37,940 bases of DNA from a virus (IMGVR_UViG_2859783438_000005), one strand, 5' to 3'. Counted from the first letter of the stretch, positions 1-37,348 are shown. The notes: generated by a model not told the origin, from the letters alone. Numbers and translations: made by a program.

Positions 1-981
1 CTAACGTCCTGCTTTTAACAATAACCAGATAAACACCGGCGCACCCAACGTTGCGGTGACCACGCCAATAGGCAGCTCTGCGGCAGCTAATGCCAGGCGC
101 GCTACAATATCGGCCAGCAGCACTGCGCTCGCCCCTGCCAGCGCGCAGCCGGGAAGTAATACGCGATGATCGGTTAAACCACACAACCGAAGAATATGTG
201 GGATCACCAGACCAATAAAGCCGATAGCACCCGCCAGCGCCACACTGACGCCAACCATCCAGCCGGTCGCTGCCACCAGCACATTGCGCCAGAACCACAG
301 GGGTAAACCCAGTTGCCGCGCCGAGATCTCGCCAAGTGCTAACATATTCATCGGCCTGGACTGACAACAGATCCACAACAACACGGGGATCAATGCCAGC
401 ATCAGCCAGCTTTGCCGCCAGTCTACGCCGCCAAAACCGCCCATCATCCAGTACATCAGCTGACGTAAATCAACAGAGGTGGAAAAGTAGATAGCCCACG
501 TCATTAGTGCGCTACAGATAATCCCTAATGCAACGCCAGCCAGCAATAACCGACTGGTCGAAAGATGACGACGGGCGAAACGTAAGAGTATTAAAGTGAT
601 GATAAGCGCGCCAGCAATCGCACACAGCCCTAGCGCCCAGTTGGGGAGTTGCCCTTGCCCAAGCAATACCGCGGCGATAAGCCCCACGCCTGCGCCGTTA
701 GAGACGCCAAGTAGTCCAGGTTCTGCCAGAGGATTTTCAAACAACGCCTGCATTACAGCGCCGGATATAGCCAGCGCCGCACCAACCAGCAATACAGCCA
801 GCGTACGTGGCAGGCGAATTTGCCAGACGAACAGTTCGCCACGAGGAGTAAACCAGTCACCTGGCGAAATCCATTGTTCACCGGCGCAAAGGCTTAAGAG
901 AAGCGCCAGCAGCATCAAAACTGACAGGCATAATAACCAGCGAATATTTTGTCGCTGTTGTTGGCGGGCAAGTGTCAGCAT
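1..981 (-). CDS. btuC: vitamin B12 ABC transporter permease BtuC
   Basis: 326-aa ORF from the track; translation ([24 protein letters not shown]...) is a polytopic membrane protein I recognise as essentially identical to enterobacterial BtuC. Confidence 0.93.
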
Positions 982-1038
982 GGTATCCGTTCTGCTGAAG
1001 TGTCATGGCGTTGATTTTACGGTGACTCTTCGACAGTG

Positions 1039-1064
1039 AAAAGAAAAAAGGCCGCAGAGCGGCC
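1039..1064 (-). terminator. putative rho-independent terminator between prophage cargo and btuC
   Basis: GC hairpin ggccg-cagag-cggcc preceded on the plus strand by an A-run (a U-run after the hairpin on the minus-strand transcript). Confidence 0.45.
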
Positions 1065-1173
1065 ATAAACACAAACAAAAATCAATAAGTTAGGTAATTA
1101 TCAAAGACTTACAGACACACAAAAACACAGCCAACCACAACAAATAACAGAGATGTGGTCAATTTGTGGATCA

Positions 1174-1728
1174 TCAGCCAACAAATTTAGCAACAAATAC
1201 AGCAACCGCCGCTGTGAAAATGGTTGTGCACACTGGCACAATAATGCCACTCCAACGCCACTTCGTATTATCATCAACCTTGTCAAACCGCCGATTCATC
1301 TCATCCATAATCTTGTCAAAGCGTTTATCCATCGCTTCGGTAAGCTCACCCTTCAGGCTGTTAATGTCTGATTTGAGCTGCTCTTTCAGGTTAGCTGTAT
1401 CAGATTTAAGCTCACCTTTCAGATTCGCAATATCGCATTCAAGATCACCTTTCAGATGTGCTATGTCTGCTTTGAGTTCACCTTTCACCTCACCAACATC
1501 GGCTTTAGTTGAGAGGTTTGTAGTGCGTTCAGCAAGCGTCGCAAGGTCGTTTCTTGTTAGCGATAAATCACCTTCGAGCCGCTCAATTCGCCTTTCAAGT
1601 TTATCTGACATTCCGCCTCCACTACTGCCGCCATCGCCACCATGATAAAGCACATCACGCTCAGAATGCGACACACTACCTGCTGAATTACCGAAAAGAT
1701 TTCTTGCTACATTACCCATTATCACCAT
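1174..1728 (-). CDS. coiled-coil, C-terminally membrane-anchored protein with 11-residue repeats (function unknown)
   Basis: 184-aa ORF; Gly/Ser-rich N-terminus, four to five 11-aa repeats (KGELKADIAHL / KGDLECDIANL / KGELKSDTANL / KEQLKSDINSL), single hydrophobic C-terminal segment (IIVPVCTTIFTAAVAVFVAKFV). Confidence 0.6.
   Translation of the reverse strand: MVIMGNVARNLFGNSAGSVSHSERDVLYHGGDGGSSGGGMSDKLERRIERLEGDLSLTRNDLATLAERTTNLSTKADVGEVKGELKADIAHLKGDLECDIANLKGELKSDTANLKEQLKSDINSLKGELTEAMDKRFDKIMDEMNRRFDKVDDNTKWRWSGIIVPVCTTIFTAAVAVFVAKFVG
1343..1487. repeat. 33-bp imperfect tandem repeats (coding, 11-codon units)
   Basis: visible periodic repetition of ...agctcacctttcagat... units in the DNA matching the 11-aa protein repeats; approximate limits. 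Confidence 0.5.
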
Positions 1729-1903
1729 CCTGCGCTTTGTCTTTCTCCAACCACTTCAGCACCGCAGACGTACGATAAAGGCTCAGGTAACCACAATTCA
1801 GGCAATGCAGCGTGTAATAAGTTTTGCGCATATCAGGTATGCTCTTAACATCACCCAAAAAAGCATAAGATACATAATGCTTTATGTTCTCTTTAATTAA
1901 CTC

Positions 1904-2157
1904 TGAAGTGGCACACTGAATTTGGCCACCTGAACAGAGGTGATATGCTCACCTCAGAACAACACAGGTGCTCCAATGAAAAAAAGAAATTTTAGCGCAG
2001 AGTTTAAACGCGAATCCGCTCAACTGGTTGACTATATCGTTGGATATTACAGCGCACTAAGACCGCACGAATATAACGGTGGGTTACCCCCAAACGAATC
2101 GGAAAATCGATACTGGAAAAACTCTAACTCGGTGGCCAGTTTTTGTTGACCACTTCA
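1904..2157 (+). mobile_element. miniature internally deleted IS911-like element (IS3 family) with 3-bp target duplication
   Basis: imperfect terminal inverted repeats tgaagtggcacactgaatttggccacc (left) and ggtggccagtttttgttgaccacttca (right, reverse complement tgaagtggtcaacaaaaactggccacc); flanked by CTC direct repeats at 1901-1903 and 2158-2160; internal ORF begins [18 protein letters not shown] as in IS911 OrfA. Confidence 0.7.
1940..2149 (+). pseudogene. remnant transposase ORF (IS911 OrfA N-terminus fused to an IS3-family OrfB C-terminal tail)
   Basis: 69-aa ORF; OrfA-like start [18 protein letters not shown] joined directly to ...[33 protein letters not shown]; far too short to encode a functional transposase. 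Confidence 0.55.
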
Positions 2158-2469
2158 CTCACTCTGTTCCTCCAGGGGTAGATTGTTAAAATTTTCTGGT
2201 TTCTTATTTTTATCCCAGCAAAGATCCATACTTTCTGGAACAGATAATCGCGACGATCCACATGAAGGGCAGACACTGGAGACCCCCTTCTCAGACAAGA
2301 AACGGAAGAAGATTTCTGGCGTAATCTCCATCAGCCGCTCTTTATGTTTTTTGACACGACTCATCGACTTCTTATTGATTTCATCAGCTTCTTCTTTGCA
2401 TTTATCTTCTATATATTTCGATAGTAAATAGTCATATAACTCTTTTTTTGTAGGTTTTTTTATTTCCAT
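2155..2469 (-). CDS. lysine-rich small protein with CPSCG zinc-ribbon-like motif, C-terminally truncated by the IS911-like insertion
   Basis: 104-aa ORF in AT-rich DNA; GGAGG RBS 9 nt upstream; starts 2 nt after the int stop; stop codon TGA is supplied by the IS terminal sequence. Confidence 0.55.
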   Translation of the reverse strand: MEIKKPTKKELYDYLLSKYIEDKCKEEADEINKKSMSRVKKHKERLMEITPEIFFRFLSEKGVSSVCPSCGSSRLSVPESMDLCWDKNKKPENFNNLPLEEQSE

Positions 2470-2471
2470 AG

Positions 2472-3449
2472 TTACATTCCTCCCAAGGGATTAAACCTCA
2501 CCGCATCCTGCAAGTAATCCGGCGCAAGATGGGCATAAATCATCGTTGTCTGAATCTTTGCGTGCCCCAGAATTTTCTGGAGCGTCAGAATATTGCCGCC
2601 GTTCATCATGAAATGACTGGCGAAGGTGTGGCGCAGCGCATGAACAGCCTGGCCGTCAGGAACATCAGGTGCGACCGTTTTGATGACATCGCGAACCAAT
2701 GAATAATCCAGCGTCGGAAACACCAGTTTCCCGCCCCGTTTTTTGATCTTTTCAAACAGGCTTTCAGAAATAGGAACGGTACGGTTTTTGCTGTTCTTCG
2801 TTTTTGAAAAAGTGATTCGACAATGAAGAACACGGCGCTGCTCCAGTGCCGCTACCTCGCCCCATCGCGCCCCGGTCGACAGAAGGATTTCGACGGCCAG
2901 CCGTTCATCGGGATTTTCAGCCAGTGCATCCAGCAACTGAACACATTCAGACTTACTCAGATATCCCATTTCACGCTCGTTAACCTTCATTCCTTTAAGG
3001 CCTTGAACGGGGTTATCGTTAAGAAAATGGCCGGATGAGATGAGTGCGGTAAACATCGCGCTTAACGCCCCAATCTCTCGATTTATGGTGCTGGGCTGTA
3101 TCCCCTGCTCTATCCTGGACACACGTAGCTCGGTGAGCATCGTTGTATTAAGTTTATGCACGCACGGGTCATCCATTGCCTCACTCAAGCGCAGCAATTT
3201 AAGGCGCGTGTTATGCCCTGACTTCATTAGCTGGCCGTGGTATTTCCACCACAAGTCAATAAGCACTGACAGCGGACGGCGATCAATGGAGTTTCCTTTC
3301 CACTCATTGTTATGCTGTTGCGCCAGCACCCACCGCTCATATAAAACTGCATCCGATTTCGTTTTAAATTTTTTGCGAATGCGTTTGCCTTTACGCCCCT
3401 CAGGACGCATGTCAAGAAGATACCCTCCCGGAATTGATTTTATGCTCAT
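2472..3449 (-). CDS. int: P2-type tyrosine integrase
   Basis: track ORF 2472..3599 trimmed to the Met at MSIKSIPGGYLLDMRPEG; C-terminal catalytic region with HALRHTFASHF...LGHAKIQTTMIYAHL (R-H-R-Y signature); about 325 aa, as for P2 Int. Confidence 0.9.
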   Translation of the reverse strand: MSIKSIPGGYLLDMRPEGRKGKRIRKKFKTKSDAVLYERWVLAQQHNNEWKGNSIDRRPLSVLIDLWWKYHGQLMKSGHNTRLKLLRLSEAMDDPCVHKLNTTMLTELRVSRIEQGIQPSTINREIGALSAMFTALISSGHFLNDNPVQGLKGMKVNEREMGYLSKSECVQLLDALAENPDERLAVEILLSTGARWGEVAALEQRRVLHCRITFSKTKNSKNRTVPISESLFEKIKKRGGKLVFPTLDYSLVRDVIKTVAPDVPDGQAVHALRHTFASHFMMNGGNILTLQKILGHAKIQTTMIYAHLAPDYLQDAVRFNPLGGM

Positions 3450-3498
3450 TCGTGAAGCCCCAGCGTTACAAGACCACCATGCCCCCAGCGTTCCATGA

Positions 3499-3810
3499 TT
3501 AGCCGGGCTGTGTGCCAGTCTTGCGGGATTTTTGAGAAGACGATGTGTTTTCTGGCCCATCAGGGGAGAGAGAAGGACTGATCTGCCCAGCAGCCTCATT
3601 TGTTTCGTTACTCATCAACCACGTAGTGTATTTTTTAAATTCCGGGTGCATTGTGATTTTCAGTAAAACCTCCGTTCCCACACCTCGAATACCAGTCTCG
3701 TATTGCTTAACCGTACCAACCGCAATACCTATTGAATCCGCGAACTTTGCCTGACTAAGCCCCTCAGATTCTCGAATTGCTTTTAGCTTCTTTGATATCT
3801 CTATTGACAT
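3499..3810 (-). CDS. C: immunity repressor (P2 C-like helix-turn-helix repressor)
   Basis: track ORF 3499..3912 trimmed to Met MSIEISKKLKAIRESEGLSQAKFADSIGIAVGTVKQYETG (HTH, Cro/C1-type); upstream of int, divergent from the early operon. Confidence 0.8.
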   Translation of the reverse strand: MSIEISKKLKAIRESEGLSQAKFADSIGIAVGTVKQYETGIRGVGTEVLLKITMHPEFKKYTTWLMSNETNEAAGQISPSLSPDGPENTSSSQKSRKTGTQPG

Positions 3811-3905
3811 GGTGTGCACCTGAATACTATATTGGTTATCAGTTGAGTGCCACTTGACGCTACAAAGAGCCACAAATAGCACCAGATTGAATAGGTTATC
3901 ACACC
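3811..3905. promoter_or_regulatory. divergent early control region (Pc/Pe-like) with direct-repeat operator candidates
   Basis: 95-bp gap between divergent repressor and early-operon starts; two copies of GGTTATCA in direct orientation (attggttatcag / ataggttatcac); promoter hexamers not confidently assigned. Confidence 0.4.
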
Positions 3906-4184
3906 ATGGCAAAAGTCCTTAACACATACGAACAAGCGGATTTTGAGCGTTTGGCGGCGTTCTACCCATACCGTAATGAACATGGGCTACCGGTACTTGA
4001 AGAAAGCCTAGAGGATTATGCGAAACGCACAAATCAAAGCATTCTCGCTGTAAGAAGGCAGGCTGATAGATCGGTAATTCCCGTTACTCAAGAAGGAAGA
4101 AACACAAAACGCAAAGTAAATCTCTTCGCAATTTTCCTGAAAACCATCAGAAACGCAGAGAAATACGTGCAGATGACAAAATAA
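3906..4184 (+). CDS. first early-operon gene, Cox/Apl-position small regulator (putative)
   Basis: 92-aa ORF directly divergent from the repressor; assignment by position only, sequence not recognised. Confidence 0.5.
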   Translation: MAKVLNTYEQADFERLAAFYPYRNEHGLPVLEESLEDYAKRTNQSILAVRRQADRSVIPVTQEGRNTKRKVNLFAIFLKTIRNAEKYVQMTK

Positions 4185-4198
4185 CGAGGTGTCATTTT

Positions 4199-4537
4199 AT
4201 GCTGAAGCAACGCCGTAATTTTTGTACCGGAACAGAACGCCACGCTAACCGTTTCACTACCAGTGCATCACGCAGCAACATCCGCTACAGCCTGAGTGAT
4301 ACACACGCAACGCCGGATGGCTACCCAGTAAAACAAATCGGCGAGCACGCCTGGCTGATTGAGAAAGCTGGAATCGTGATCCACAAATGCCCACGCAATC
4401 CGTTTACCGGAAACCGCATTTTTGCACTGAGCTGTGGCGACAATCAGTTCGGGCAGGATTTCACATTATACGAAGCACTTCGCACGGTTGATCGTCTGCT
4501 TCGCGGGCAAAGTTTTATTAAACAGGCTGATTTATAA
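4199..4537 (+). CDS. hypothetical early protein
   Basis: 112-aa ORF with GAGGTG RBS about 10 nt upstream. Confidence 0.5.
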   Translation: MLKQRRNFCTGTERHANRFTTSASRSNIRYSLSDTHATPDGYPVKQIGEHAWLIEKAGIVIHKCPRNPFTGNRIFALSCGDNQFGQDFTLYEALRTVDRLLRGQSFIKQADL

Positions 4538-6243: not shown

Positions 6244-8208
6244 ATGACGGCAGAGTACATCAGGGACTGGCAACAACCGCGCCACGCAGTGGGGCGTGAA
6301 GGAACGGGGATCCCCGCTCCTGAATCCGCGCTTTCCTCCTGGCTGGATGCCCACCGGGCAGAGAACGAGCGCCGCCAGGAAATGGCTGATGCGGCGTTCT
6401 CCGCCACGCCACTGGGCAACCTGATTAATAAAAGCCTGGACGCACAGGAAAAACAGGACAAAACCATCACACTGGCAGGAGACGCCAGAAAACAGGCACG
6501 CGGCGCGGTGGATGAAGCCATGGCCTCGCTGCGCCTGCTGCCGTCCTATCTGCGCGATCCGCTTATTCGCCACCTCTCCTTCCTGCGCAAAAAACAGGAA
6601 GCCGATCGCCGGAAAGGCAAAAAGAGCTGGCAGGCGGAACGCTATGCACGCGGAACCCTGCGCAAAATATTCGAACGTCTGGATCGCACTGACGGACACT
6701 GGCTGACACCGGGTTATCGCTCCCTTGCCGGACGTGAACGCCTGGACGATTTGCTTTACCTGCCGCAACTCAACAAACACCAGATACAGACGCTGGCCAC
6801 CATGACGGCGGCGATGTTCAGCAGCACCTTCGAAAAACTCTGCGATGGTTTTGGCGCGACTGATGGCGAGCTGACCATGGATGTAACGCTGAAGGCGTAT
6901 CAGATGCTGGCCCGCATGGCGTTACACTTACACGCCATGCCTCCGCATTATGACGCACTGACAACAGACAAAGACCGGAGGCACGAACCGGACACAGAAC
7001 TGCTGCCGGGCGCAATCCTTCGCCTGACCTGTGCGGAATGGTGGAAACGCAAACTGTGGCTGTTACGTTGCGAGTGGAGAGAAGAACAACTTCGCGCCGC
7101 CTGTCTGGTTTCCAGAAAAACATCGCCCTATCTGAGCCAGGACGCGTTAAGCGAGTTTCGCGCACAGCGCGAGAAAACACGCGATTTCCTGAAAAGTTTC
7201 ATGCTGGAAAATGAAGACGGGTTCACGATTGATCTCGAGACGGTGTATTACGCGGGAGTAAGTAACCCGGTTCACCGTAAGGCAGAAATGATGGCCACCA
7301 TGAAGGGGCTGGAACTTCTGGCCGAAGCCCGTGGCGACAAAGCGGTGTTTCTGACTGTCACCTGCCCGTCAAAATACCACGCCACAACGGAGAACGGTCA
7401 TCCGAATCCCAAATGGAACGGGGCCACAATGCGCGACTCCAGCGATTACCTGGTTAACACGTTTTTTGCGACGGTCCGCAAAAAACTGAACCGCGACGGC
7501 CTGCGCTGGTATGGCATCCGCACGGCGGAGCCTCACCATGACGGCACCGTGCACTGGCATATGATGGTCTTTGCTCATCCGGAAGAAATCGACACCATTG
7601 TGTCCCACACCCGCGATATTGCCATTCAGGAAGATCGTCACGAGCTGGGCGATGACATAACTCCGCGCTTTAAGGCGGAGTATGTAGACGGCTCAAAAGG
7701 CACGCCAACCAGCTACATCGCCACCTACATCGGGAAAAACCTGGACAGCCGCGCCGTGGATGGCATCGACCCGAAAACGGGCAAGCCACGCGTTGACCAC
7801 GAAACCGGAAAATCAATGGCCGAGAGCGTGGAACGCGCCATCGGCTGGGCGCGCCTTCACCGGGTCCGCCAGTTCCAGTTCTTTGGCATCCCCTCCCGCC
7901 AGGTATGGCGTGAACTGCGCCGCCTTGCCAGCCAGATGGCACGCAACCCGGAAGGCCCGCAACGGCTGAAGGATGACGCAATGGATGCGGTTCTTGCCGC
8001 CGCTGATGCCGGATGTTTTGCCACCTACATAGAGAAACAGGGCGGCGTACTTGTTCCACGCAAAGACTACCTGATTCGCACCGCCTACGACCTCGCCGAT
8101 GAGCTGAACGATTACGGCGAACAGAGCGTACAGATTTACGGGATCTGGTCACCACTCATCGGGGAATCCTCCGTGTGTGCACGCATCCGGATAACTGGAA
8201 GCTGGTAA
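6244..8208 (+). CDS. A: rolling-circle replication initiator endonuclease (P2 gpA family)
   Basis: 654-aa ORF; HUH-type motif region ...AEPHHDGTVHWHMMVFAHPEE... and the position at the end of the early operon match P2/186 A. Confidence 0.85.
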   Translation: MTAEYIRDWQQPRHAVGREGTGIPAPESALSSWLDAHRAENERRQEMADAAFSATPLGNLINKSLDAQEKQDKTITLAGDARKQARGAVDEAMASLRLLPSYLRDPLIRHLSFLRKKQEADRRKGKKSWQAERYARGTLRKIFERLDRTDGHWLTPGYRSLAGRERLDDLLYLPQLNKHQIQTLATMTAAMFSSTFEKLCDGFGATDGELTMDVTLKAYQMLARMALHLHAMPPHYDALTTDKDRRHEPDTELLPGAILRLTCAEWWKRKLWLLRCEWREEQLRAACLVSRKTSPYLSQDALSEFRAQREKTRDFLKSFMLENEDGFTIDLETVYYAGVSNPVHRKAEMMATMKGLELLAEARGDKAVFLTVTCPSKYHATTENGHPNPKWNGATMRDSSDYLVNTFFATVRKKLNRDGLRWYGIRTAEPHHDGTVHWHMMVFAHPEEIDTIVSHTRDIAIQEDRHELGDDITPRFKAEYVDGSKGTPTSYIATYIGKNLDSRAVDGIDPKTGKPRVDHETGKSMAESVERAIGWARLHRVRQFQFFGIPSRQVWRELRRLASQMARNPEGPQRLKDDAMDAVLAAADAGCFATYIEKQGGVLVPRKDYLIRTAYDLADELNDYGEQSVQIYGIWSPLIGESSVCARIRITGSW

Positions 8209-23243: not shown

Positions 23244-25214
23244 ATGAGAACCACAACACGAAAATTTAAAACCATTATCACCGATACGGGTGCAAAAAAA
23301 TTAGCGCAGGCAACCGCGCCAGATGGGAAACCTGTCCGCCTGACACATATGGCCGTGGGTGACGGCGGCGGTACTTTACCCACGCCAGACAGTAAGCAGA
23401 CCCGTCTTGTGCATGAGGTGTGGCGACATACCGTTAATCGCGTCACCCTGGACGCAACACATCAGAACCACATTATTGCGGAGCTGGTTATTCCTCCTGA
23501 AACGGGCGGATTCTGGATCCGGGAAATTGGTGTGTTTGATGAGCACGGCGATTTGATCGCGGTAGGCAATACTGCCGAAAGTTACAAGCCAACCGTTGCC
23601 GAAGGATCCGGACGTGCACAAACATTTCGCACCATTCTGACCGTATCCAGCACTGCCACTGTGGCGCTTACCGTGGATAACACCATGGTGATGGCCACAG
23701 TGAATTACGTGGATGACAAACTGAAAGAGCATGAACAGTCACGACGTCACCCGGACGCCTCGCTGACCGCAAAAGGCCTTGTCCAGCTCAGCAACGCCAC
23801 CAACAGCACGTCTGAAACGCTGGCAGCGACACCAAAAGCCGTTAAGGCAGTAATGGATGAAACGAACAAGAAAGCCCCATTAAACAGCCCGGCACTGACC
23901 GGAACGCCAACAACACCAACTGCGCGACAGGGAACGAATAATACCCAAATCGCAAGCACGGCTTTCGTTATGGCTGCGATTGCCGCACTTGTAGACTCTT
24001 CGCCTGATGCACTGAACACACTGAACGAGCTGGCGGCGGCGCTGGGCAACGACCCGAATTTTGCGACCACCATGACTAACGCGCTTGCGGGTAAGCAACC
24101 GAAAGATGCCACTCTGACGGCGCTGGCGGGGCTTGCTACTGCGGCAGACAGGTTTCCGTATTTTACGGGGAATGATGTCGCCAGCCTGGCAACCCTGACA
24201 AAAGTCGGGCGGGATATTCTTGCGAAATCGACCGTTGCCGCCGTTATCGAATACCTCGGTTTACAGGAAACGGTAAATCAGGCTTCTGGCGCATTACAGA
24301 AAAACCAGAACGGCGCAGATATTCCGGGGAAAGATACCTTCACCAAAAATATTGGTGCCTGCCGCGCATATAGCTCATGGCTGAATATTGGTGGCGATAG
24401 TCAGGTCTGGACAACCGCGCAATTTATTTCGTGGCTGGAGAGTCAGGGAGCATTTAACCATCCTTACTGGATGTGCAAAGGCTCATGGGCTTATGCAAAT
24501 AATAAGGTCATTACAGATACAGGTTGCGGAAATATTTGTCTTGCAGGTGCTGTGGTGGAAGTTATTGGCACTCGCGGCGCAATGACCATACGCGTTACCA
24601 CGCCGAGCACGTCCAGCGGTGGCGGAATTACTAACGCTCAATTCACTTATATTAATCATGGTGATGCTTACGCTCCTGGCTGGCGACGAGACTACAACAC
24701 GAAAAATCAACAACCTGCATTTGCTTTAGGGCAAACAGGAAGCACTGTCGGAAATGATAAAGCTGTTGGCTGGAACTGGAATAGCGGGGTCTATAACGCA
24801 AACATTGGTGGCGCATCGACATTAATCCTCCACTTCAATATGAATACGGGGAGCTGCCCTGCTGTACAGTTCCGCGTGAATTACAGGAACGGCGGTATTT
24901 TTTATCGTTCAGCGCGTGATGGTTATGGCTTTGAAGCTGACTGGTCAGAGTTTTACACCACAACCCGCAAACCCTCTGCGGGAGATGTTGGTGCATATAC
25001 GCAGGCAGAATGTAACTCAAGGTTTATTACAGGTATTCGCCTTGGTGGTCTGTTATCTGTTCAGACATGGAATGGTCCCGGATGGTCTGACAGGTCAGGT
25101 TATGTTGTTACCGGTTCCGTTAACTCAAACAGAGATGAACTAATTGATACAACTCAGGCAAGGCCAATTCAGTATTGCATTAATGGGACGTGGTATAACG
25201 CGGGGAGTATTTAA
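23244..25214 (+). CDS. H: tail fibre protein H: constant N-terminal part fused to the currently expressed variable C-terminal cassette
   Basis: 656-aa ORF; first ~340 aa closely resemble P2 H (GDGGG, ELVIPPE, EHEQSRRHPDASLTAKGLVQLSNATNSTSETLAATPKAVK...), then diverge after ...YLGLQETVN at the gix-like site. Confidence 0.9.
   Translation: MRTTTRKFKTIITDTGAKKLAQATAPDGKPVRLTHMAVGDGGGTLPTPDSKQTRLVHEVWRHTVNRVTLDATHQNHIIAELVIPPETGGFWIREIGVFDEHGDLIAVGNTAESYKPTVAEGSGRAQTFRTILTVSSTATVALTVDNTMVMATVNYVDDKLKEHEQSRRHPDASLTAKGLVQLSNATNSTSETLAATPKAVKAVMDETNKKAPLNSPALTGTPTTPTARQGTNNTQIASTAFVMAAIAALVDSSPDALNTLNELAAALGNDPNFATTMTNALAGKQPKDATLTALAGLATAADRFPYFTGNDVASLATLTKVGRDILAKSTVAAVIEYLGLQETVNQASGALQKNQNGADIPGKDTFTKNIGACRAYSSWLNIGGDSQVWTTAQFISWLESQGAFNHPYWMCKGSWAYANNKVITDTGCGNICLAGAVVEVIGTRGAMTIRVTTPSTSSGGGITNAQFTYINHGDAYAPGWRRDYNTKNQQPAFALGQTGSTVGNDKAVGWNWNSGVYNANIGGASTLILHFNMNTGSCPAVQFRVNYRNGGIFYRSARDGYGFEADWSEFYTTTRKPSAGDVGAYTQAECNSRFITGIRLGGLLSVQTWNGPGWSDRSGYVVTGSVNSNRDELIDTTQARPIQYCINGTWYNAGSI
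24253..24277. repeat. gix/hix-like recombination site A (left inverted repeat of the invertible fibre segment)
   Basis: acctcggtttacaggaaacggtaaa; the reverse complement recurs at 27310-27334; matches the Mu gix site as I recall it (TTCCTGTAAACCGAGG...). Confidence 0.7.
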
Positions 25215-25216
25215 CG

Positions 25217-25750
25217 ATGATGCACTTAAAAAACATTTCTGCTGGTAATCCTGAAACAAAAGAGCAATACCAGCTAACGAAACAATTTAACATCAAATGG
25301 CTTTATACAGAGGATGGGAAAAACTGGTATGAGGAACAAAAGAACTTTCAGCCTGATACGTTGAAAATGGTCTATGACCACAACGGCGTTATTATTTGTA
25401 TTGAAAAGGATGTTTCAGCAATTAATCCGGAAGGCGCAAGCGTCGTTGAGGTTCCTGATATTACAGCAAATCGCCGGGCTGATATTTCAGGTAAATGGAT
25501 GTTCAAAGATGGCGTAGTGATAAAGCGAACTTATACCGGGGAAGAGCAGAGGCAACAAGCGGAAAATGAAAAGCAAAGCCTGCTACAGCTCGTCAGGGAT
25601 AAAACCCAGCTATGGGACTCACAGCTACGGCTGGGCATTATTTCCGACGAGAATAAACAAAAATTAACCGAGTGGATGCTCTATGCGCAGAAGGTCGAAT
25701 CCACAGACACCTCCAGCCTGCCAGTAACGTTTCCCGAACAACCAGAATGA
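25217..25750 (+). CDS. G: tail fibre assembly protein (gpG/Tfa family), current orientation
   Basis: 177-aa ORF directly after H; paralogous to the minus-strand ORF 25779..26306 (MMHLKNI.AGN...[23 protein letters not shown]). Confidence 0.8.
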   Translation: MMHLKNISAGNPETKEQYQLTKQFNIKWLYTEDGKNWYEEQKNFQPDTLKMVYDHNGVIICIEKDVSAINPEGASVVEVPDITANRRADISGKWMFKDGVVIKRTYTGEEQRQQAENEKQSLLQLVRDKTQLWDSQLRLGIISDENKQKLTEWMLYAQKVESTDTSSLPVTFPEQPE

Positions 25751-25778
25751 AACAAGGCCCGATATCGGGCCTTAATTT

Positions 25779-26306
25779 TTACTCAGGCTTTTGTGGCCAT
25801 TCTGGCTTTGCCGTATCCACACGGCTGACCAGAACACTGTAGCGTTCCCATGCTTCCAGTCGTGTGCGTTCCTCGTCCGTCGCCATATTCAGCCTGACAG
25901 CGCGTTCCAGCGGCTGGATGACTGATTCAGCTTCGGAAAGCAATGCGGCCTTTTGTGATTCGGCCTGTTGTTGCTGTTCGTCAGCCGTATAAATCCGTTT
26001 AACCACAGCTCCGTCCTTAAACATCCACTTACCGGAATCATCAGCACGACGATTAGCTGTAATATCAGGAACCTCAACGACGCTATAACCTTCAGGGTTA
26101 AGCGTGGAGGCATCTTTGGTGATGGCGACAATAATATTATTTGCATCGTAAACAATCTTTATTGTGTCTGGCTGAAAGTTCTTCACTTCCTCATACCAGT
26201 TTTTTCCGTCCTCAGAGTAAAGCCAGATGACTCCGTGCTTCTTTGTTAACTCATACTGCTCCACTGTTTTAGCATTACCTGCTTTTATGTTCTTTAAGTG
26301 CATCAT
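25779..26306 (-). CDS. alternative tail fibre assembly protein (Tfa') of the inverted cassette
   Basis: track ORF 25779..26339 trimmed to Met [11 protein letters not shown]; paralogue of G. Confidence 0.7.
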
Positions 26307-26307
26307 A

Positions 26308-26949
26308 TTAAATACTCGCCACATTATACCAAGTGCCATTTATATACTTTTGCACTGGCCTGTAATGAACGCCTGCAATATTATCGGCAGAGTTTTTTCC
26401 GGTATCCTGTACGTTAATCCCCGTCAGTACATAGCCTGACGGGCACTGAAAATTCCATGTTTGCCAGTTGTTCACTCCATAATATTGCTGTGAACCAAGT
26501 CGAACATCTTTCACATATCTGGAATCAAAATTGCCATAGTTGCCGGGAATAACTTGCGAGCCGCAAAGCCAGTTCCCGTTATTATCCATGTACGCCTGAC
26601 CATCGGTGCCATTGGCTGTCCTTGAGTTATTAATCATGTAGATGCCAAATTGCTTATTTCCCAGACCGCCAATCATAAATTTGCGGTCGGCATGGTCCTG
26701 ACGGAGCAAAGCCTGAGCACCATCAGTGGATACCGCATTACGTCCCAAAATAACATTCTGGTCACGCATATGAATCCACATGCCGGTACTACTGTTAATT
26801 GCAAAACGGTTTGCAAATATATCCCCTGTAACATCAAGACCATGCCCCATGCTTATCCGGCCAGTTCTGAGATTAAGCGTAAAGGGGCGTAGTGGCCCTA
26901 TATTACCATTTTCCCCTTCATTCTCTCGTGTAGGATGATATGCAGGCAT
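26308..26949 (-). CDS. alternative tail fibre C-terminal receptor-binding cassette (H'v), promoterless; upstream part lies in another frame
   Basis: ends ...[16 protein letters not shown]...[16 protein letters not shown] as in the P2 H C-terminus; the 5' continuation to the gix site (26898..27309) is in a different frame. Confidence 0.55.
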
Positions 26950-27309
26950 TCTTCAGAACGACGAAAAATGGCACCAAAAGATGAATTAAATATCCTCAGT
27001 GCATTGACTGTCGATATTTTCACTTCACTGCTGAAAAGGGCTTCAACAAGAACAGACAAAGCATTCCATTTAAGATTCATCAGGTCTTTAGGCCGGGTGC
27101 CAATGATGCGGTGTCTCCATTTGAAATATTCATTGCCGTTGTTGCCTGTTTCAAACCACATGTAGGAATCGGTGTCTGCATCCGAATTATTTTTAAACCC
27201 AATCTTTGCCCAGTCAGTATTTCGAATCCAGGCAAGGATTGAGTCGTTTTCAAAAGTAAGTCCACCGGACAACGTATCGCCATTTTTTTGCACGGCGTTA
27301 CCAGCCTTG

Positions 27310-27334
27310 TTTACCGTTTCCTGTAAACCGAGGT
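27310..27334. repeat. gix/hix-like recombination site B (right inverted repeat), interrupted by IS insertion
   Basis: tttaccgtttcctgtaaaccgaggt; the rest of the predicted site (tagataa) is displaced to about 27850 beyond the IS. Confidence 0.65.
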
Positions 27335-27335
27335 T

Positions 27336-27846
27336 TGAGGTGTACTGGCAATAGCGGACACTACCATTTGTTCTTTTTTTAAGCAGCCATCTGATGATAT
27401 TTTTCCCTGAAGGCTGCCGGGGAGATATTCCCCAGACGAGAGTGACGACGCTGACGATTGTAGAAAATCTCAATGTATTCCCGTATTACTGAGATGGCTT
27501 CATCCCGGTTATTAAAACGATAGTGGCTCAGGCTCTCATTTTTCAGCGTTCCCCAGAAGCTTTCCATCGGAGCGNNNNNNNNNNNNNNNNNNNNNNNNNN
27601 NNNNNNNNNNNNNNNNNNNNNNNNNNNNNNNNNNNNNNNNNNNNNNNNNNNNNNNNNNNNNNNNNNNNNNNNNNAAGAGATAATCGGGAAGCGCCTTCAC
27701 TGATCGAAAGTTGATTTTCAAGAACCGTTCTGACAGCTTCGGCTTTGAACTCTTTAGAGTAACGTTGGGTTTTTCTGCTCATTATTAGCTCCTTCTGATG
27801 CCATTCTATTTCAGGAAGGAGTGTCCGTTAAACTCAGGCTACCTCA
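27336..27846 (-). mobile_element. IS3-family insertion sequence (IS600-like), interior unresolved by an assembly gap
   Basis: terminal inverted repeats tgaggtgtactggcaatagcggacactacc (27336-27365) and ggaaggagtgtccgttaaactcaggctacctca (27814-27846); 3-bp GTT direct repeats at 27333-27335 and 27847-27849; OrfA N-terminus MSRKTQRYSKEFKAEAVRTV and OrfB C-terminus ...FYNRQRRHSRLGNISPAAF on the minus strand. Confidence 0.7.
27575..27674. other. assembly gap (100 N)
   Basis: run of exactly 100 n inside the IS element; the true length of the missing sequence is unknown. Confidence 0.95.
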
Positions 27847-27911
27847 GTTTTAGATAATGGCCGTTTCCGGCCTGCATGGCATGATTTGCGCTTTTGGACG
27901 GGAGATTCAGC

Positions 27912-28499
27912 GTGCTGATTGGCTATGTAAGGGTATCAACAAATGACCAGAATACAGACCTGCAACGAAACGCTCTTGTTTGTGCAGGATGTGAACAAAT
28001 ATTTGAAGATAAATTAAGCGGGACAAAGACAGACCGACCGGGATTAAAACGCGCTTTAAAGCGCCTTCAAAAAGGTGACACGCTGGTTGTCTGGAAACTG
28101 GATCGCCTCGGGCGAAGCATGAAACATCTGATTTCTCTCGTCGGGGAACTACGGGAGCGAGGAATTAATTTTCGCAGTCTGACCGACAGCATAGATACAT
28201 CTTCTCCAATGGGGCGTTTTTTCTTCCACGTGATGGGTGCCCTGGCTGAAATGGAACGTGAATTAATTGTTGAACGTACACTGGCCGGACTGGCGGCAGC
28301 ACGCGCACGGGGGCGCACAGGCGGACGTCGACCGAAGCTGACAAAAGAACAGCATGAGCAAATAGCAAGGCTGATCAAAAACGGGCACGACAGAAAACAA
28401 CTGGCAATAATTTACGGCATTGGTATATCGACGATTTATCGTTACCACCCCGCAGGAGAATCAATCGGAACAATAGAGAAGAGTCAGGAAACAAAATAA
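27912..28499 (+). CDS. serine DNA invertase (Gin/Pin/Hin/Cin family)
   Basis: track ORF 27894..28499; from the GTG at 27912 the protein reads MLIGYVRVSTNDQNTDLQRNALVCAGCEQIFEDKLSG..., nearly identical to Gin/Pin as I recall them (catalytic Ser in VRVSTNDQ). Confidence 0.88.
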   Translation: MLIGYVRVSTNDQNTDLQRNALVCAGCEQIFEDKLSGTKTDRPGLKRALKRLQKGDTLVVWKLDRLGRSMKHLISLVGELRERGINFRSLTDSIDTSSPMGRFFFHVMGALAEMERELIVERTLAGLAAARARGRTGGRRPKLTKEQHEQIARLIKNGHDRKQLAIIYGIGISTIYRYHPAGESIGTIEKSQETK

Positions 28500-28530
28500 C
28501 CGCTAATCTGACCATTAGCGGTTTTTGTGT
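28498..28530 (+). terminator. rho-independent terminator after the invertase gene
   Basis: aaccgctaat-ctgacc-attagcggtt followed by tttgtgt. Confidence 0.5.
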
Positions 28531-28534
28531 TAAA

Positions 28535-29029
28535 TCAGAACAACCCTTTAACTGAACTGGCCGCGCTGTTAAGGGATGATGTTACCTTATCTTTGAAGCC
28601 GGACAGCATATCGCTGAACGATGAGGATTGCAGGCGCTCCCGCAAATCCTCATCACAGCGTTCAAGAGTCAGTGAAAATTCTATCTTTTTCGCCTTACCG
28701 TAGCGATCAAACTCGGAGCGGGTCGTATTCGTTTCGGTCAGGACATACATGCCGTAAATCTGCCCGACGCCATCAATCAGAGGCCAGGGTCGTCCTGTAT
28801 ACGCCTGCGTGGTCAGCAGCGACAGCGACACTTCGCCACCTGTAATTTCAGGATAAAGCACACCAGAAAGAACGATGCGCTCATCACCTGCACCGATATA
28901 CTGCCAGCTTGCCGAACGGTTAACGCGTTCATTTTTCACATGCCGCCAGCTTTTGTTTTGCTGTAACTGCTGATGCGGCAATGTACGCAGCTCAAAAACA
29001 AACATGCCGTAGATCATCATCATGGCCAT
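28535..29029 (-). CDS. U: tail protein U (P2 gpU family)
   Basis: 164-aa ORF; resembles P2 U as I recall it (MMM...FVF...SWRH...); start among several N-terminal Met. Confidence 0.75.
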   Translation of the reverse strand: MAMMMIYGMFVFELRTLPHQQLQQNKSWRHVKNERVNRSASWQYIGAGDERIVLSGVLYPEITGGEVSLSLLTTQAYTGRPWPLIDGVGQIYGMYVLTETNTTRSEFDRYGKAKKIEFSLTLERCDEDLRERLQSSSFSDMLSGFKDKVTSSLNSAASSVKGLF

Positions 29030-29035
29030 GACTCC

Positions 29036-31879
29036 TCAATCTTTATCGTAAAAACTGCCACGCCCGGCACGGGCGCGCCGTTCCATTTCTGCCCTGACCA
29101 TTTCACCGACCAGTTTCGCCAGTTCGCGGGGATTCTGCGTAACAACGTTATGCAGATGAACATGAATTTCACCACCAAATCCGGAGGCAACAGGCTCCCG
29201 GTTACGGGAAGTTACAGGAACTGATGCCACTGGAGAGCGTATGGCCTCCGCCACCGGGCGGGAGCTGGCCGCAACAACAGGGACCAGCGCCGGAGGCAGC
29301 GGAGCCGGGACCACGGGTGTGATATTAATTGCGGGGGCAGGCTTACTGACCTGCGCAATCTTCCGCTCCTGCCACTCCCCACGAACAGCAAGTGCGCGGG
29401 GCAGGTTCTTAAAGACAATATCGCCGGGGCCAATGCGTTTTTTCGTCTCATCAACCAGCTTACCTGTGTTATCAGCAATTTTGCTGAGTCTGCGTAGCGT
29501 CCCGGTATTGCTGTCTGTGAGCGGTTTGTTGTCTTTGGGTTTATCACCTCCGGTGCCATTGCCATTTTCCACAGGCTTCGGCGGATTGATTTTCGCCAGG
29601 TTCCCCTGAAGCAAGGCAACCTTGTCCTGAAGAATGGCCGCACGCTGTGCGTCTTCGATTTTCTTGCGCGCCCTTTCCGCTTCATCCGGAAGGACGCCAA
29701 GTTTTTCAAGTATCCACGCCAGCGTATCCAGTAGCATTTTTGCAGGTGTCAGAACAAGTTGTAACGCACCGCCAAGAACGTTACCGAATATCTCGCCAGC
29801 ACTGGCACATTTATCCAGCGTTTCCTTGCTGGACTCCATCGGTGACAGCAGCGATTTAAACCAGTTAAAGACCTGAATAATCCCATCGCGCACGACATCA
29901 AAAACAGGGCCAAACCGTTCAAAGGTTTCGCGCAACGGGGTCAGCCTTTCCATAATCCCGCTGAACACCCCGGCAAAAAATGCCCTGATGGGATCCCAGT
30001 ATTTCCAGATAAGAACGGCAGCTCCGGCAAGCGCAGCCACGATAAGACTAACCGGACTGAACAGCGCCCCGATAGCGCCACCAAGTAAAGAAACGGAACC
30101 CGTCACCATTCCCCATAATGCAGGCAGAACCCTGACAACATTCATTGATTCGGTCAGGAGAGAAAAACCGAGACGCAACGTAGCCAGCTTCCCGTGAAGC
30201 ACCCCAATAACCAGAGACAACGAACCAACCGTTGCTGTTGTCGCCAGCAGTGCGCCTCCCGCTATCAGTAACTGGCGCGTCAGTGCCGGGTGGGCCTGCG
30301 CCAGCGCCGTCACCTTTGAGACAACCCGCGTGAGCCACTGCGTGACAGAACGCAGCGGACCGTCAACCAGATCACTGATGCGAATACGCAGACCTTCCCA
30401 TGCACTGCCGAGTGATTTCAGGTTGCCATCAAGGTTATTGGCCATAACCTTTGCCGTGCGTTCTGCCTCACCGCGCGCGCCTTCAAGTTCTTTTCTCAGT
30501 TTGGCTAAGAAGCCGTCACCTGCCGCATCAACGAGGCCCATAAATGATGTGAAAGCCTCTTCTCCGGCAATGTCCTTAAAGAACGATACCCGGTCAACCT
30601 CCCCGTATTTGCGGGTGGCTTTATAGAGATCGGCCAGCACATTCTCCATCGGGCGCATTTTGCCTTTGGCGTCAGCAACTGACACCCCCAGCTCTTTCAG
30701 TGCTTCTGCCGCTGCCTTTGGCGGTGATGACAGATTGGCCAGGCTTTTACGCAACGCTGTACCTGCATCACTCCCCCTGATACCCATCTTCGCCAGCACG
30801 CCCGCCATCGCTGCGGCCTGCTCCAGCGATATTCCCAGCTTACCCGCCACCGGACCTGCATATTTCATGGTTTCGCCCAGTGCGCGAAGGTCAGTGTTGG
30901 TACGGGTAAACGCTGCGGTAAGTGTGTCACCGACCCGGTCCATCTGGTCAGCAGAGAGGCCGAACTGCGTCAGGATATTGGAACCAATATCCGCCGTCTC
31001 GCCGAGGTCCATACCGCCAGCCGTTGCCATGCTCAGCACGCCGGGAAGCGCAGCCTGAATGGCCTGCGGTGTGAAACCAGCCATTGCAAGAAATGCCTGT
31101 CCACTGGCGGCATCGCCTGCGGTGAACTGCGTTTCAGAGCCAAGTTTTAACGCCTGCTCACGCAGCGCCTTAAACTGCGGGCTGTTTTTATCGATTCGCG
31201 TCAGTGCCTGAACACGGGACATCTCTTTCCCGAACCCGATAGCGGGCTGCAAAAAACGCCCGGCAGCATAGCCGCCCGCTGCCGCCGCACCTGTTGCCAG
31301 CGCACCACCTGTTTTCAGTTTTCCCGCTGTTTCCTGCGCGCGTGAATACCGCTCACGCGCCTGCGTTACACGCGCAAGCGCCCGCCGTTCGCGTTCAAGC
31401 TGGTTGTTGTATTGTCCGGTGCGTCTGATGGCCTGCTGGATGGTGTTATCGCTGCCTGTCAGGGAAATGCCGTGGCGTTTCAGCTCTCCGCCAAGTTCCC
31501 GCATTTTCTGAATTTCCCGTGTGCGCGATTCATTCAGGCGTTCAAGCCGGGTGCTTAACTGCTGCATCAGCTTTTGTTGTTTTTCGCTGAGCACTGTACC
31601 CGTGCGTTGTAACTGATTAAGGGCGTTAAGCTGGCGTCGTGCTTTCACGATGCCCGCATCCGCTTTACTGACAGCGTCACGGGCGCGCTCAAATGAACGC
31701 GCCTGACGCTCGAGATTTTTGATCGCCCCCTGCGTTCGCTGGATGGAGTCACCAAACTGCCCCATCAGGCGGCGGGCGTTTTCGGCAGGCCGGGTCAGCC
31801 TGTCAACGGCGCTGAAAGCGACCCGGATATCAAGAGTCTTCATTGTCTGCATTCCCGCTGCGAAGTGCCGCCCGCTCAC
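29036..31879 (-). CDS. T: tail tape measure protein (P2 gpT family)
   Basis: 947-aa Ala/Gly-rich ORF with coiled-coil N-terminus and hydrophobic central region, directly downstream of E/E'; start uncertain (GTG 31879, ATG 31852 or 31843). Confidence 0.85.
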   Translation of the reverse strand: MSGRHFAAGMQTMKTLDIRVAFSAVDRLTRPAENARRLMGQFGDSIQRTQGAIKNLERQARSFERARDAVSKADAGIVKARRQLNALNQLQRTGTVLSEKQQKLMQQLSTRLERLNESRTREIQKMRELGGELKRHGISLTGSDNTIQQAIRRTGQYNNQLERERRALARVTQARERYSRAQETAGKLKTGGALATGAAAAGGYAAGRFLQPAIGFGKEMSRVQALTRIDKNSPQFKALREQALKLGSETQFTAGDAASGQAFLAMAGFTPQAIQAALPGVLSMATAGGMDLGETADIGSNILTQFGLSADQMDRVGDTLTAAFTRTNTDLRALGETMKYAGPVAGKLGISLEQAAAMAGVLAKMGIRGSDAGTALRKSLANLSSPPKAAAEALKELGVSVADAKGKMRPMENVLADLYKATRKYGEVDRVSFFKDIAGEEAFTSFMGLVDAAGDGFLAKLRKELEGARGEAERTAKVMANNLDGNLKSLGSAWEGLRIRISDLVDGPLRSVTQWLTRVVSKVTALAQAHPALTRQLLIAGGALLATTATVGSLSLVIGVLHGKLATLRLGFSLLTESMNVVRVLPALWGMVTGSVSLLGGAIGALFSPVSLIVAALAGAAVLIWKYWDPIRAFFAGVFSGIMERLTPLRETFERFGPVFDVVRDGIIQVFNWFKSLLSPMESSKETLDKCASAGEIFGNVLGGALQLVLTPAKMLLDTLAWILEKLGVLPDEAERARKKIEDAQRAAILQDKVALLQGNLAKINPPKPVENGNGTGGDKPKDNKPLTDSNTGTLRRLSKIADNTGKLVDETKKRIGPGDIVFKNLPRALAVRGEWQERKIAQVSKPAPAINITPVVPAPLPPALVPVVAASSRPVAEAIRSPVASVPVTSRNREPVASGFGGEIHVHLHNVVTQNPRELAKLVGEMVRAEMERRARAGRGSFYDKD

Positions 31880-32359
31880 GCCAGCTAACCACTTCGCCGG
31901 GCGTCATCATGAAGATTTCGGCGGGCGACCAGTTAAAAATGGCGGCAATATCCGCCACAAAGTCTTCTATGTGCTCAAAGCACACAACCGTGATCAGGCT
32001 TCCGTCGCCTGTTCGTTCTTCTCGCCAGAGTCCGCACCGCTCAAAAAATTTACGGCAACCACACATAACTGAATAAAGTCACGGGATGCCATTTTTTTGA
32101 TCGTCACTTCATCCAGTCGCGGTGATGTCACGCGTGACAGCAGCGTAAACATGGATTCCGCTTTCAAATTCAGCACATCAGACAGCGACAAATCTCGCAG
32201 AGATCCAGCCTGCTCAATAGCCCCGGTGATCTCCACATACGTGATTTTTTCGCCGCCTCGCTCAATTGGTTGGGTAAGTTTTACGCCACGCTCACTGGTT
32301 TCTTTCACAGTGTCAGCAACGACCGTGTTTTCGGTATCGATGTTTTTCGTCTCTTTCAT
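31830..32359 (-). CDS. tail assembly chaperone E+E' fusion made by programmed -1 ribosomal frameshift
   Basis: slippery site TTTTTTG (plus-strand caaaaaa at 32042-32048); the -1 frame continues as ...FFERCGLWREERTGDGSLITVVCFEHIEDFVADIAAIFNWS... to a stop at 31830, overlapping the T start. Confidence 0.55.
31994..32359 (-). CDS. E: tail assembly chaperone E
   Basis: 121-aa ORF between FII and T; contains a T6G slippery heptamer near its 3' end. Confidence 0.7.
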   Translation of the reverse strand: MKETKNIDTENTVVADTVKETSERGVKLTQPIERGGEKITYVEITGAIEQAGSLRDLSLSDVLNLKAESMFTLLSRVTSPRLDEVTIKKMASRDFIQLCVVAVNFLSGADSGEKNEQATEA

Positions 32360-32413
32360 CAGGAAACTCCTTTCAGTCAGAGGCGACGCACTGCGCCGCC
32401 TGCATATTACTTA

Positions 32414-32926
32414 TCAGCCAAGCCCGAGCGCGGAACGGATGCGATCGGGCACAATGTCCCTGCCGTCCTTCCGGTAAATGAAGTTCAGCAGGTCAATCTC
32501 CCACAACGGGCGATCGTTAACACTCAGCTTGTAGTAGGTGTTTTTAATGGCGTAAGTGTGTGATGTGGCTTCGCCCTGTTTGGCTTCCCCCATATCAATT
32601 TCCGTCACACGTCCGCGCATTTCGACTTCATACAGGTCGCTTTCAGCGTCGGTGTAGTATTCACCCGCAAAACGCAGCAGCGTACCGTCAATCGTGCCGC
32701 CATACTTAAGGAACAGCTCACGAACTGCGCCCCCCATGACAAAGCTCGCATCAAGCGCGGAGTCATCCAGGCCGAGATCAATACTTACCGCTCCCATCAT
32801 GCCACCACCCCGGTAGCTGTCGGTTTTGCGCGTCAGCTTAGGCAGAGTGACGGACGTCACCTTACCCACTTCGTTTTCACCATCCACAAACAGCGTAAAA
32901 AAGCGAAGATGTTTTGGTACAGCCAT
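32414..32926 (-). CDS. FII: tail tube protein (P2 gpFII family)
   Basis: 170-aa ORF immediately downstream of FI. Confidence 0.85.
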   Translation of the reverse strand: MAVPKHLRFFTLFVDGENEVGKVTSVTLPKLTRKTDSYRGGGMMGAVSIDLGLDDSALDASFVMGGAVRELFLKYGGTIDGTLLRFAGEYYTDAESDLYEVEMRGRVTEIDMGEAKQGEATSHTYAIKNTYYKLSVNDRPLWEIDLLNFIYRKDGRDIVPDRIRSALGLG

Positions 32927-34110: not shown

Positions 34111-34267
34111 AGCTTCAACCCCTTGTATCCGTTAAATGATTCGGCAACAATCATCACCCACCACGCGCGTAATCTCACCCCTGCGCCATTCTCCCGCCAC
34201 GGCGACAACAAAAAGCAGTAACCCCCTCCGCACGCACATGCGACCATGCCACACAGGGAGGGAGCAG

Positions 34268-35377: not shown

Positions 35378-35539
35378 GCAACTTAAATGTATTAACTCAG
35401 AACGGATCAACACACTCACAACATAGAGTCAATATAGCTGCTCGCTTTGTTCCAGCAAGGATGCCTATTTCTAAGGAAAAACAGAGCAGAAACATATGGT
35501 GTTTTCCTACCTGACATCAGGGGTGGTAAGAATCATGCT

Positions 35540-35567
35540 TTGATAACCAATTGATAACTATTATTAT
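35540..35567 (+). promoter_or_regulatory. candidate sigma-70 promoter for the PIN-like island gene
   Basis: TTGATA - about 16 nt - TATTAT in AT-rich DNA, about 35 nt upstream of the start; GAGG RBS at 35594-35597. Confidence 0.3.
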
Positions 35568-35602
35568 ATTAATCTAACACCATTGACATAGTTGAGGTTT
35601 GA

Positions 35603-37105: not shown

Positions 37106-37348
37106 GGGTGTACTCAAATAATACAATGCTATAGTAAATCTATAAGTGCATAACTATTTCCTGATCTTTTCCCAAAATAGATGACAGGATAAAAAACATT
37201 CCAATCTTTTACAGGCTTTGGATAAATCGTATCAAAGCCTATTTCTTCAAGAGTTAAATCACCGCTTTTCGCTCGAAACGGACTGGCTGTTGGAGTATGA
37301 GCCAGAACAACTTAGAATAGCCCCTGCACTACGTTAAGGGAGGTCGCT

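Follow-up and report, generated by a model that had tools for sequence, protein, structure and literature searches.

A 254-bp IS911 relic splits a conserved accessory gene at the attL end of a P2-like prophage

Introduction

What has happened to the small gene that adjoins the integrase in the viral sequence IMGVR_UViG_2859783438_000005, and by what route did it happen? The stretch of DNA analysed here, referred to below as the window, is 37,940 nucleotides long, and positions are counted from its first letter. A first-pass annotation of the window, made from the sequence alone, had read positions 1901-2160 as a 254-bp miniature element derived from IS911, flanked by a CTC target duplication and truncating a zinc-ribbon cargo gene. 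IS911 belongs to the IS3 family, transposes by a copy-out/paste-in route with a circle intermediate, and produces OrfA and OrfAB by a -1 frameshift; its target duplication is 3 bp, or rarely 4 bp. Small non-autonomous derivatives of bacterial insertion sequences that retain terminal inverted repeats and target duplications, and that are usually present in many copies, are known as MITEs. We confirm here that the locus holds a real, precisely mapped IS911 relic that splits a conserved prophage gene, an ordinary case of gene decay by a mobile element, and we weigh the routes by which the 254-bp form could have arisen.

Results

Prophage context at the attL end

The window carries a P2-like (P88-like) prophage integrated beside btuC. 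Homology to prophage-free E. coli chromosomes (e.g., BL21) ends at approximately position 1064, where a GC-rich hairpin with a T-run after it lies upstream of btuC (1050-1064, minus strand) and marks the attL boundary. Everything from about 1065 rightward is therefore prophage, and the interrupted gene, hereafter the four-Cys gene, lies between attL and int. Matches in phage collections begin only at 3236, and from there on identity to phage P88 and related phages is 94-96%.

Along the minus strand, the genes are ordered as a P2 C-like HTH repressor (3499-3810), the integrase, the four-Cys gene, and a gene for a DUF1640/CCDC90-like coiled-coil protein (1174-1728) with a C-terminal hydrophobic segment that is probably membrane-spanning. 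The integrase is of the P2 tyrosine type (2472-3449, minus strand; 325 aa by the RefSeq (PGAP) start) and its stop codon directly adjoins the four-Cys ATG. Upstream of the repressor, a consensus scan picked out a promoter-like site (3853-3826, minus strand). From this site and the spacing of the genes, we infer that all four would be co-transcribed in the lysogen. In the prophages of E. coli 2D and 06-00048, which occupy the same chromosomal site, the slot between int and DUF1640 is filled by a divergent member of the four-Cys family (CLSCG...CSYCG), so the three-gene arrangement is conserved among related prophages. The earlier description of the gene as cargo is reasonable: it is inside the prophage borders, where chromosomal homology has ended, it is outside the conserved P2 core, and it varies among related prophages, as accessory (moron/cargo) genes do.

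Two annotation details were observed at these loci. The divergent member in E. coli 2D is an unannotated 137-aa ORF (locus L011, 1806-2219, minus strand; the same slot is occupied in L012), and RefSeq leaves the 478-bp gap between int and DUF1640 of this strain empty. The start of the DUF1640 gene is itself ambiguous. In the homologous gene of E. coli O26 RM8426, RefSeq (PGAP) places the initiating Met at window position 1611 (145 aa), and forms of 181-184 aa are also recorded. The 181-aa forms on record begin MGNVARNLF, and the longer ORF shares 17 nt with the end of the four-Cys gene. A Gly-rich stretch upstream of position 1611 (..GGDGGSSGGGMSDK) is conserved at the protein level in a divergent allele.

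Structure of the inserted element

Alignment to the IS911 of phage Sf6 (AF547987.1) resolves the element into two pieces of the insertion sequence, nt 1-126 and nt 1122-1249, which together make 254 bp (1904-2157) and are identical to Sf6 IS911 at 253 of 254 nt. The borders given by the first-pass annotation are exact. The left segment (1904-2029, plus strand) holds the left terminal inverted repeat (IRL), the leader and orfA codons 1-18, and matches Sf6 at 126/126 and the IS911 copy of the chromosome CP044151.1 at 127/127 positions. The right segment (2030-2157, plus strand) holds the last 39 codons of orfB, the stop codon and the right terminal inverted repeat (IRR), and matches Sf6 at 127/128 and both locus L003 and CP044151.1 at 128/128 positions. 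Counted over both segments, agreement with the CP044151.1 copy is 255/255 aligned positions (127 + 128 nt, with the junction G present in both alignments). When a composite IS911, pieced together from two IS30-split copies in E. coli, served as the reference, the deletion map was the same. The Sf6 copy truly spans 280-1528 of L021, giving 1249 bp with a GTT duplication; the mobile_element feature deposited in AF547987.1 (L021 283-1531) is off by 3 nt relative to these TGAAGTGG...CCACTTCA ends.

The two termini are imperfect inverted repeats of the IS911 type, as had been proposed. IRL (1904-1939, plus strand; 36 bp) begins with TG and is identical to IRL in Sf6, L007 and L022, and IRR (2122-2157, minus strand; 36 bp) ends with CA. 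These 36-nt ends are alike at 24 of 36 positions, and both are identical to the ends of the IS911 copies in Sf6, L003, L007 and CP044151.1. The motif TGAAGTGG-N11-TGGCCACC occurs at just two sites in the 37,940-bp window, 1904-1930 (plus) and 2131-2157 (minus), against 0.01 expected by chance. The order of sequence across 1901-2160 is ...TTAATTAA-CTC-TGAAGTGGCACACTGAATTTGGCCACC ... GGTGGCCAGTTTTTGTTGACCACTTCA-CTC-ACTCTG..., with the element running from TGAAGTGGCACACTGAATTTGGCCACC to GGTGGCCAGTTTTTGTTGACCACTTCA between the two CTC copies.

Between the two segments, 995 bp of IS911 (nt 127-1121) are missing. The deletion junction reads CAACTGGTTG/ACTATATCG (the slash marks the join), and the parental sequences at this point are ..CAACTGGTTG/TTGACC.. 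and ..ATAACGG/ACTATATC.., with a single G in common. The deletion therefore represents an illegitimate, microhomology-poor event. Through the loss of nt 127-1121, the orfA/orfB arrangement with its programmed -1 frameshift is absent, the A6G frameshift site and the entire DDE catalytic region having been deleted. The element is consequently an IS911 derivative that is not autonomous and cannot transpose alone, in agreement with the first reading of it as a non-autonomous deletion derivative.

Translation and the Sf6 alignment also bear out the internal ORF that had been noted, which joins the first 18 residues of OrfA in frame to the C-terminal tail of OrfB (1976-2149, plus strand; 57 aa). The OrfB part consists of the final 39 residues (DYIVGYY...SVASFC). 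The fusion contains no DDE domain and no complete HTH, a Pfam search with its 69-aa GTG-start form gave no match, and the product is presumably inert. Scans for promoters and terminators found no such site within the element, so any polarity on DUF1640 would need to come from the premature stop described below. Rfam and tRNA scans of the window returned nothing.

Empty site and reconstruction of the interrupted gene

An uninterrupted version of the locus exists in E. coli O26 RM8426, where the prophage sits at the same btuC site and the flanks are 99.79% and 99.85% identical to those of the window. The empty site in this genome, TTAATTAACTCACTCTG, contains one CTC and no element. The CTC copies on the left (1901-1903) and right (2158-2160) of the element are therefore a target-site duplication, as first assigned; the right copy, read on the minus strand, encodes Glu104 of the truncated product. 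When window 1100-3700 was compared by megablast with 5,426 complete E. coli genomes, 23 proved to carry the locus without the element, RM8426 being the best match, and none carried the element.

Deleting 1904-2160 from the window restores a 166-aa ORF with its stop at 1712-1714, which is residue for residue identical to WP_000403440.1, the RefSeq protein annotated in RM8426. This bears out the prediction of a pre-insertion gene that encodes approximately 165 aa, stops near 1712 and holds HCLNCGY as its second Cys pair, and the uninterrupted homologue that had been called for as a check exists, as does the match to IS911 at both ends. In the window, the 5' part of the gene (2155-2469, minus strand) encodes 104 aa including only the first CxxC (C67/C70). 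It ends ...EEQSE followed by TGA, and this TGA is the reverse complement of the terminal TCA of the element, so the stop codon is, as had been claimed, supplied by the right end of the insertion. The orphaned 3' part (1712-1903, minus strand), defined by reconstruction and alignment, comprises codons 105-166 and the stop, with HCLNCG and 17 of the 36 residues that are invariant in the family. We also considered whether IS911 had landed beside a sequence resembling its own inverted repeats. The best IRL and IRR matches to the reconstructed target were no better than those to shuffled sequences, and this form of targeting was rejected.

A conserved four-cysteine family

The reconstructed protein (gene of 501 bp, 38.5% GC) matches phrog_4293, a family of unknown function, over residues 39-163 (E=8e-23). 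A word-indexed search placed relatives in 18 clusters from E. coli, Shigella, Salmonella and Providencia, and a profile search of 1.84 billion representatives returned 91 proteins at E<0.001, most of 105-170 aa and mostly covering profile positions about 40-160. An alignment of 16 full-length homologues, drawn from E. coli, Salmonella and Providencia, has 36 invariant columns, among them C67, C70, C137 and C140. An AlphaFold2 model (mean pLDDT 83.6) shows a long N-terminal helix, a mixed region with beta-strands around both Cys pairs, and a C-terminal helix.

The zinc-ribbon label given earlier stands in part. Its basis is the four invariant cysteines together with zinc-ribbon matches in Pfam that fall below threshold: no Pfam family reached its cutoff, the best being Zn_ribbon_13 (17.3 bits versus a cutoff of 23) with other zinc-ribbon matches weaker. 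A curated domain model above threshold does not back the label, and fold searches yielded no significant structural neighbour. Two-CxxC zinc-ribbon-like protein is a fair description, with zinc binding putative. A lone PADLOC match (E=0.005) was weak and was taken as noise. The 104-aa fragment is left with one Cys pair and lacks almost half of the conserved core; because 17 of the 36 invariant residues lie beyond residue 104, the truncated product is probably dead, as judged from conservation.

Origin of the 254-bp form

A near-identical genome provides a parent for the relic. The 4.96-Mb chromosome CP044151.1, for which a literature search returned nothing, is 100% identical to window positions 1-1903 and differs by one mismatch over 2157-4200. 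Its four-Cys gene is intact, and a full-length 1249-bp IS911 (L022 4224-5472) sits instead in the DUF1640 gene, approximately 400 bp away and in the opposite orientation, with an ATG target duplication. The ends of this copy are 100% identical to those of the relic, which indicates that an IS911 of exactly the parental sequence was active in this lineage. The 104-aa truncated product also occurs in two Logan assemblies from independent read sets, SRR5192198 and SRR10744036, the contigs of which are 100% identical to the window up to IRR and break inside it.

The sequence of events that we consider best supported runs as follows. IS911 inserted at codon 104/105 of the four-Cys gene, duplicating CTC as in copy-out/paste-in integration. 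Most likely a full-length copy arrived, from which illegitimate recombination at the 1-nt microhomology would later have removed 995 bp in place. The remaining 254 bp retain both ends for transposase binding and cleavage, with orfA/orfAB and the DDE domain gone, and the terminal TCA, read as TGA, yields a 104-aa fragment lacking the second CxxC. The whole would amount to the decay, neutral or nearly so, of dispensable cargo of a prophage in an E. coli/Shigella lineage where IS911 is active. That IS911 inserted, inactivated the gene and left a relic in a process of ordinary decay is, in our judgement, very probably the correct account. The order of its two steps is held with less assurance: the intact ends and the target duplication are compatible both with insertion followed by deletion and with the arrival of a ready-made element, and insertion of a full-length copy with later deletion in place is the order that we favour to a modest degree over mobilisation of a mini element in trans.

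Under the latter alternative, which we regard as possible though on the doubtful side, the 254-bp element would be a true MITE that formed elsewhere, was moved here by OrfAB acting in trans, and belongs to a mobile non-autonomous family. Both inverted repeats are wild type and the 3-bp duplication is perfect, as this would require, and a full-length IS911 with identical ends is present in CP044151.1. In the laboratory, OrfAB acting in trans mobilises IS911 derivatives stripped down to their ends, and since both ends here are wild type, a second IS911 could in principle still supply the OrfAB to move the relic. Against this, OrfAB acts preferentially in cis, and the deletion junction has no second copy in any collection searched. 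The junction 23-mer CAACTGGTTGACTATATCGTTGG had 0 matches in GTDB species representatives, JGI metagenome contigs and IMG/VR viral contigs, and neither the 5,426 complete E. coli genomes nor a set of 72,556 plasmids contained a single-piece match to the full-length element, in searches that covered Shigella genomes poorly and the host genome over 38 kb. Neither the 57-aa nor the 69-aa fusion ORF was found by exact look-up among 153 billion gene positions, which is weak evidence as short repeat ORFs are often uncalled.

Other IS911 relics bear on the same choice. A 221-bp relic on the IncF plasmid CP148300.1 (L020 151-371) and an 809-bp relic in E. coli GMF054 (L019 61-869) each have intact IRL and IRR, GAC/GAC duplications and a single copy. 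That two further small derivatives have perfect target duplications fits a mobile MITE. Their deletion junctions, ..CGCTCAA/TTAAGACC.. and ..CCCTAACT/TACAGCGC.., are nevertheless their own, and every known IS911 relic has a unique junction. Three relics with different junctions at different loci point to independent decay events and not to copies of one element. Together with the failure to find a second copy of the junction, this favours deletion in place over an amplifying MITE. The earlier term miniature element accordingly holds for a small IS911 derivative and not for a multi-copy mobile MITE. A search of the literature brought up nothing specific on a miniature or MITE form of IS911.

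Several near-full-length matches were inspected and set aside. Matches H1-H6, from plasmids of pig E. coli, contain an abutted IRR-GAG-IRL junction and are not the same derivative; match H7 consists of two adjacent ISEc52 copies, and match H13 is a degenerate remnant without the terminal CACTTCA. The abutted arrangement in NZ_CP062900.1 and five relatives (L002 3118-3137), ..CCACTTCA-GAG-TGAAGTGG.., lies between two truncated copies, which is the geometry of an IS911 circle or tandem-dimer junction kept in a plasmid.

A further reading is that the 254-bp structure is an artefact, namely the assembly collapse of a full-length IS911. Misassembly is frequent at insertion sequences, and the window alone documents the internal junction, the Logan contigs stopping inside IRR. 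The points that were joined share one G, so no k-mer overlap could have made the join, and assembler joining of shared k-mers is ruled out as its source. The join is, moreover, precise and in frame, and the analogous 221-bp and 809-bp relics reside in finished replicons. We consider an artefact extremely improbable.

Recurrent disruption of the four-cysteine gene

The four-Cys gene is interrupted in other genomes at other positions. In Shigella sonnei GCA_001248965.1 (L014 1690-1804), an IS911 IRR follows codon 77; in Logan SRR33123132 (L008 3240-3281), an IS911-like IRL variant (TGAAGTGGTTTACTGAATTTGGCCACC) follows approximately codon 85 in the opposite orientation; and in E. coli GCA_009869075.1 (L010 3355-3480), an IS2 IRL follows approximately codon 119 and leads into an ORF with the rve (transposase) domain of IS2. 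Frameshift alleles are represented by P0018 (8 contigs) and WP_251003682.1 (strain RM12367-C1), and P0021 is likewise listed as a frameshift allele. No sequence resembling an IS911 end was found in the target to explain the clustering of insertions. In E. coli GCA_053523575.1, which has a K40N allele (L009 3300-3313; 98.6% identical), the contig ends 1 nt past the same GAG (CTC). This is suggestive of an independent insertion at the same site, or is just an assembly break.

These cases raise the question of whether inactivation is adaptive, i.e., whether the four-Cys gene, or the int-proximal module as a whole, burdens or poisons the lysogen such that IS knock-outs are selected. The independent disruptions fall in one 501-bp gene and are of different kinds (IS911, IS911-like, IS2 and frameshifts), and by a rough tally from cluster tables ~19 of ~107 unique sequences of the four-Cys gene are truncated versus ~7 of ~200 for DUF1640, the neighbour that served as a control. 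Such counts of unique sequences are not counts of independent events, and many of the entries marked partial are contig ends (e.g., L016, which is uninterrupted at CTC). The truncated DUF1640 variants, although fewer, include the CP044151.1 insertion, so that the adjoining gene has also been struck by IS911. Among the 23 complete E. coli genomes with the locus, one frameshifted copy (WP_251003682.1) was seen, and the features at the locus in the others are listed as ordinary hypothetical proteins. The hosts, finally, belong to IS-rich lineages in which neutral insertions accumulate. We therefore regard adaptive inactivation as unlikely, and neutral accumulation of insertions in AT-rich, dispensable cargo of IS-rich hosts as the simplest reading.

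A more elaborate version would have int, the four-Cys gene and DUF1640 form a module expressing, in the lysogen, a two-gene system (e.g., for superinfection exclusion or abortive infection) costly enough for IS3-family knock-outs to be selected, with the relic perhaps being a still-mobile IS911 MITE. To this combination we give even less credence than to adaptive inactivation as such.

Other features of the window

Elsewhere in the prophage, a 500-aa ORF with an N-terminal PIN_4 domain (35603-37105, plus strand) lies between gpD and ogr and has no PADLOC match. It is likely another accessory gene. The best E. coli matches leave 19% of window 25000-37940 uncovered, and we assume that this ORF lies behind much of that share. 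At the right edge of the window, a 46-aa toxin ORF of the Hok/Gef family (37801-37940, plus strand; PF01848, 29 bits) follows an ogr-like gene that starts at 37350; Rfam detected no Sok-type RNA. Between the replication and portal genes, a variable region (8175-11002, plus strand) includes a ParM-like actin (9142-10101) together with several ORFs (8175-9065, 10478-11002) that matched nothing in Pfam or PADLOC.

A serine DNA invertase (27894-28499) adjoins oppositely oriented ORFs for tail-fibre assembly and a tail-fibre C-terminus (25779-27473), and the stretch 25779-28499 has the appearance of an invertible host-range segment. Tail operon FI-U (28535-34110) is encoded on the minus strand. This is probably not a local inversion, given that other E. 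coli prophages align on one strand over 81% of 25000-37940; related prophages appear to be collinear with the window in the orientation of this operon.

Discussion

The locus adds one more case to a familiar class of events and implies no new mechanism. Its value is in part practical. The 104-aa ORF and a downstream 48-aa ORF represent the halves of a single 166-aa gene, with a fusion remnant of IS911, the 57-aa ORF, lying between them. None of the three therefore merits annotation as a separate gene. The locus is also a clean, documented example of an IS3-family element cut down to its two ends, with the empty site and the parent insertion sequence (in a sister genome) identified and the deletion junction mapped. 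More broadly, it flags a small, conserved and uncharacterised gene pair by the integrase of P2-like prophages that is recurrently disrupted in IS-rich E. coli and Shigella lineages.

Set against known systems, the interrupted gene belongs with phrog_4293 and WP_000403440.1, a family whose gene is intact there and split in the window, and for which there is no Pfam or PADLOC model and no structural neighbour. The element resembles MITEs in its small size, terminal inverted repeats of a known insertion sequence, target duplication and absence of a transposase; it differs in that there is no evidence for more than one copy, and in being a two-piece deletion of a contemporary IS911 rather than a diverged, amplified family. 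With IS911 itself, it shares the 36-nt imperfect inverted repeats ending TG...CA and the 3-bp target duplication, and it differs in lacking nt 127-1121, that is, nearly all of orfA, the A6G site and the DDE region. Its closest counterparts are the 221-bp and 809-bp relics, which combine intact ends, a 3-bp duplication and an internal deletion just as the window element does, each with its own junction and at an unrelated locus.
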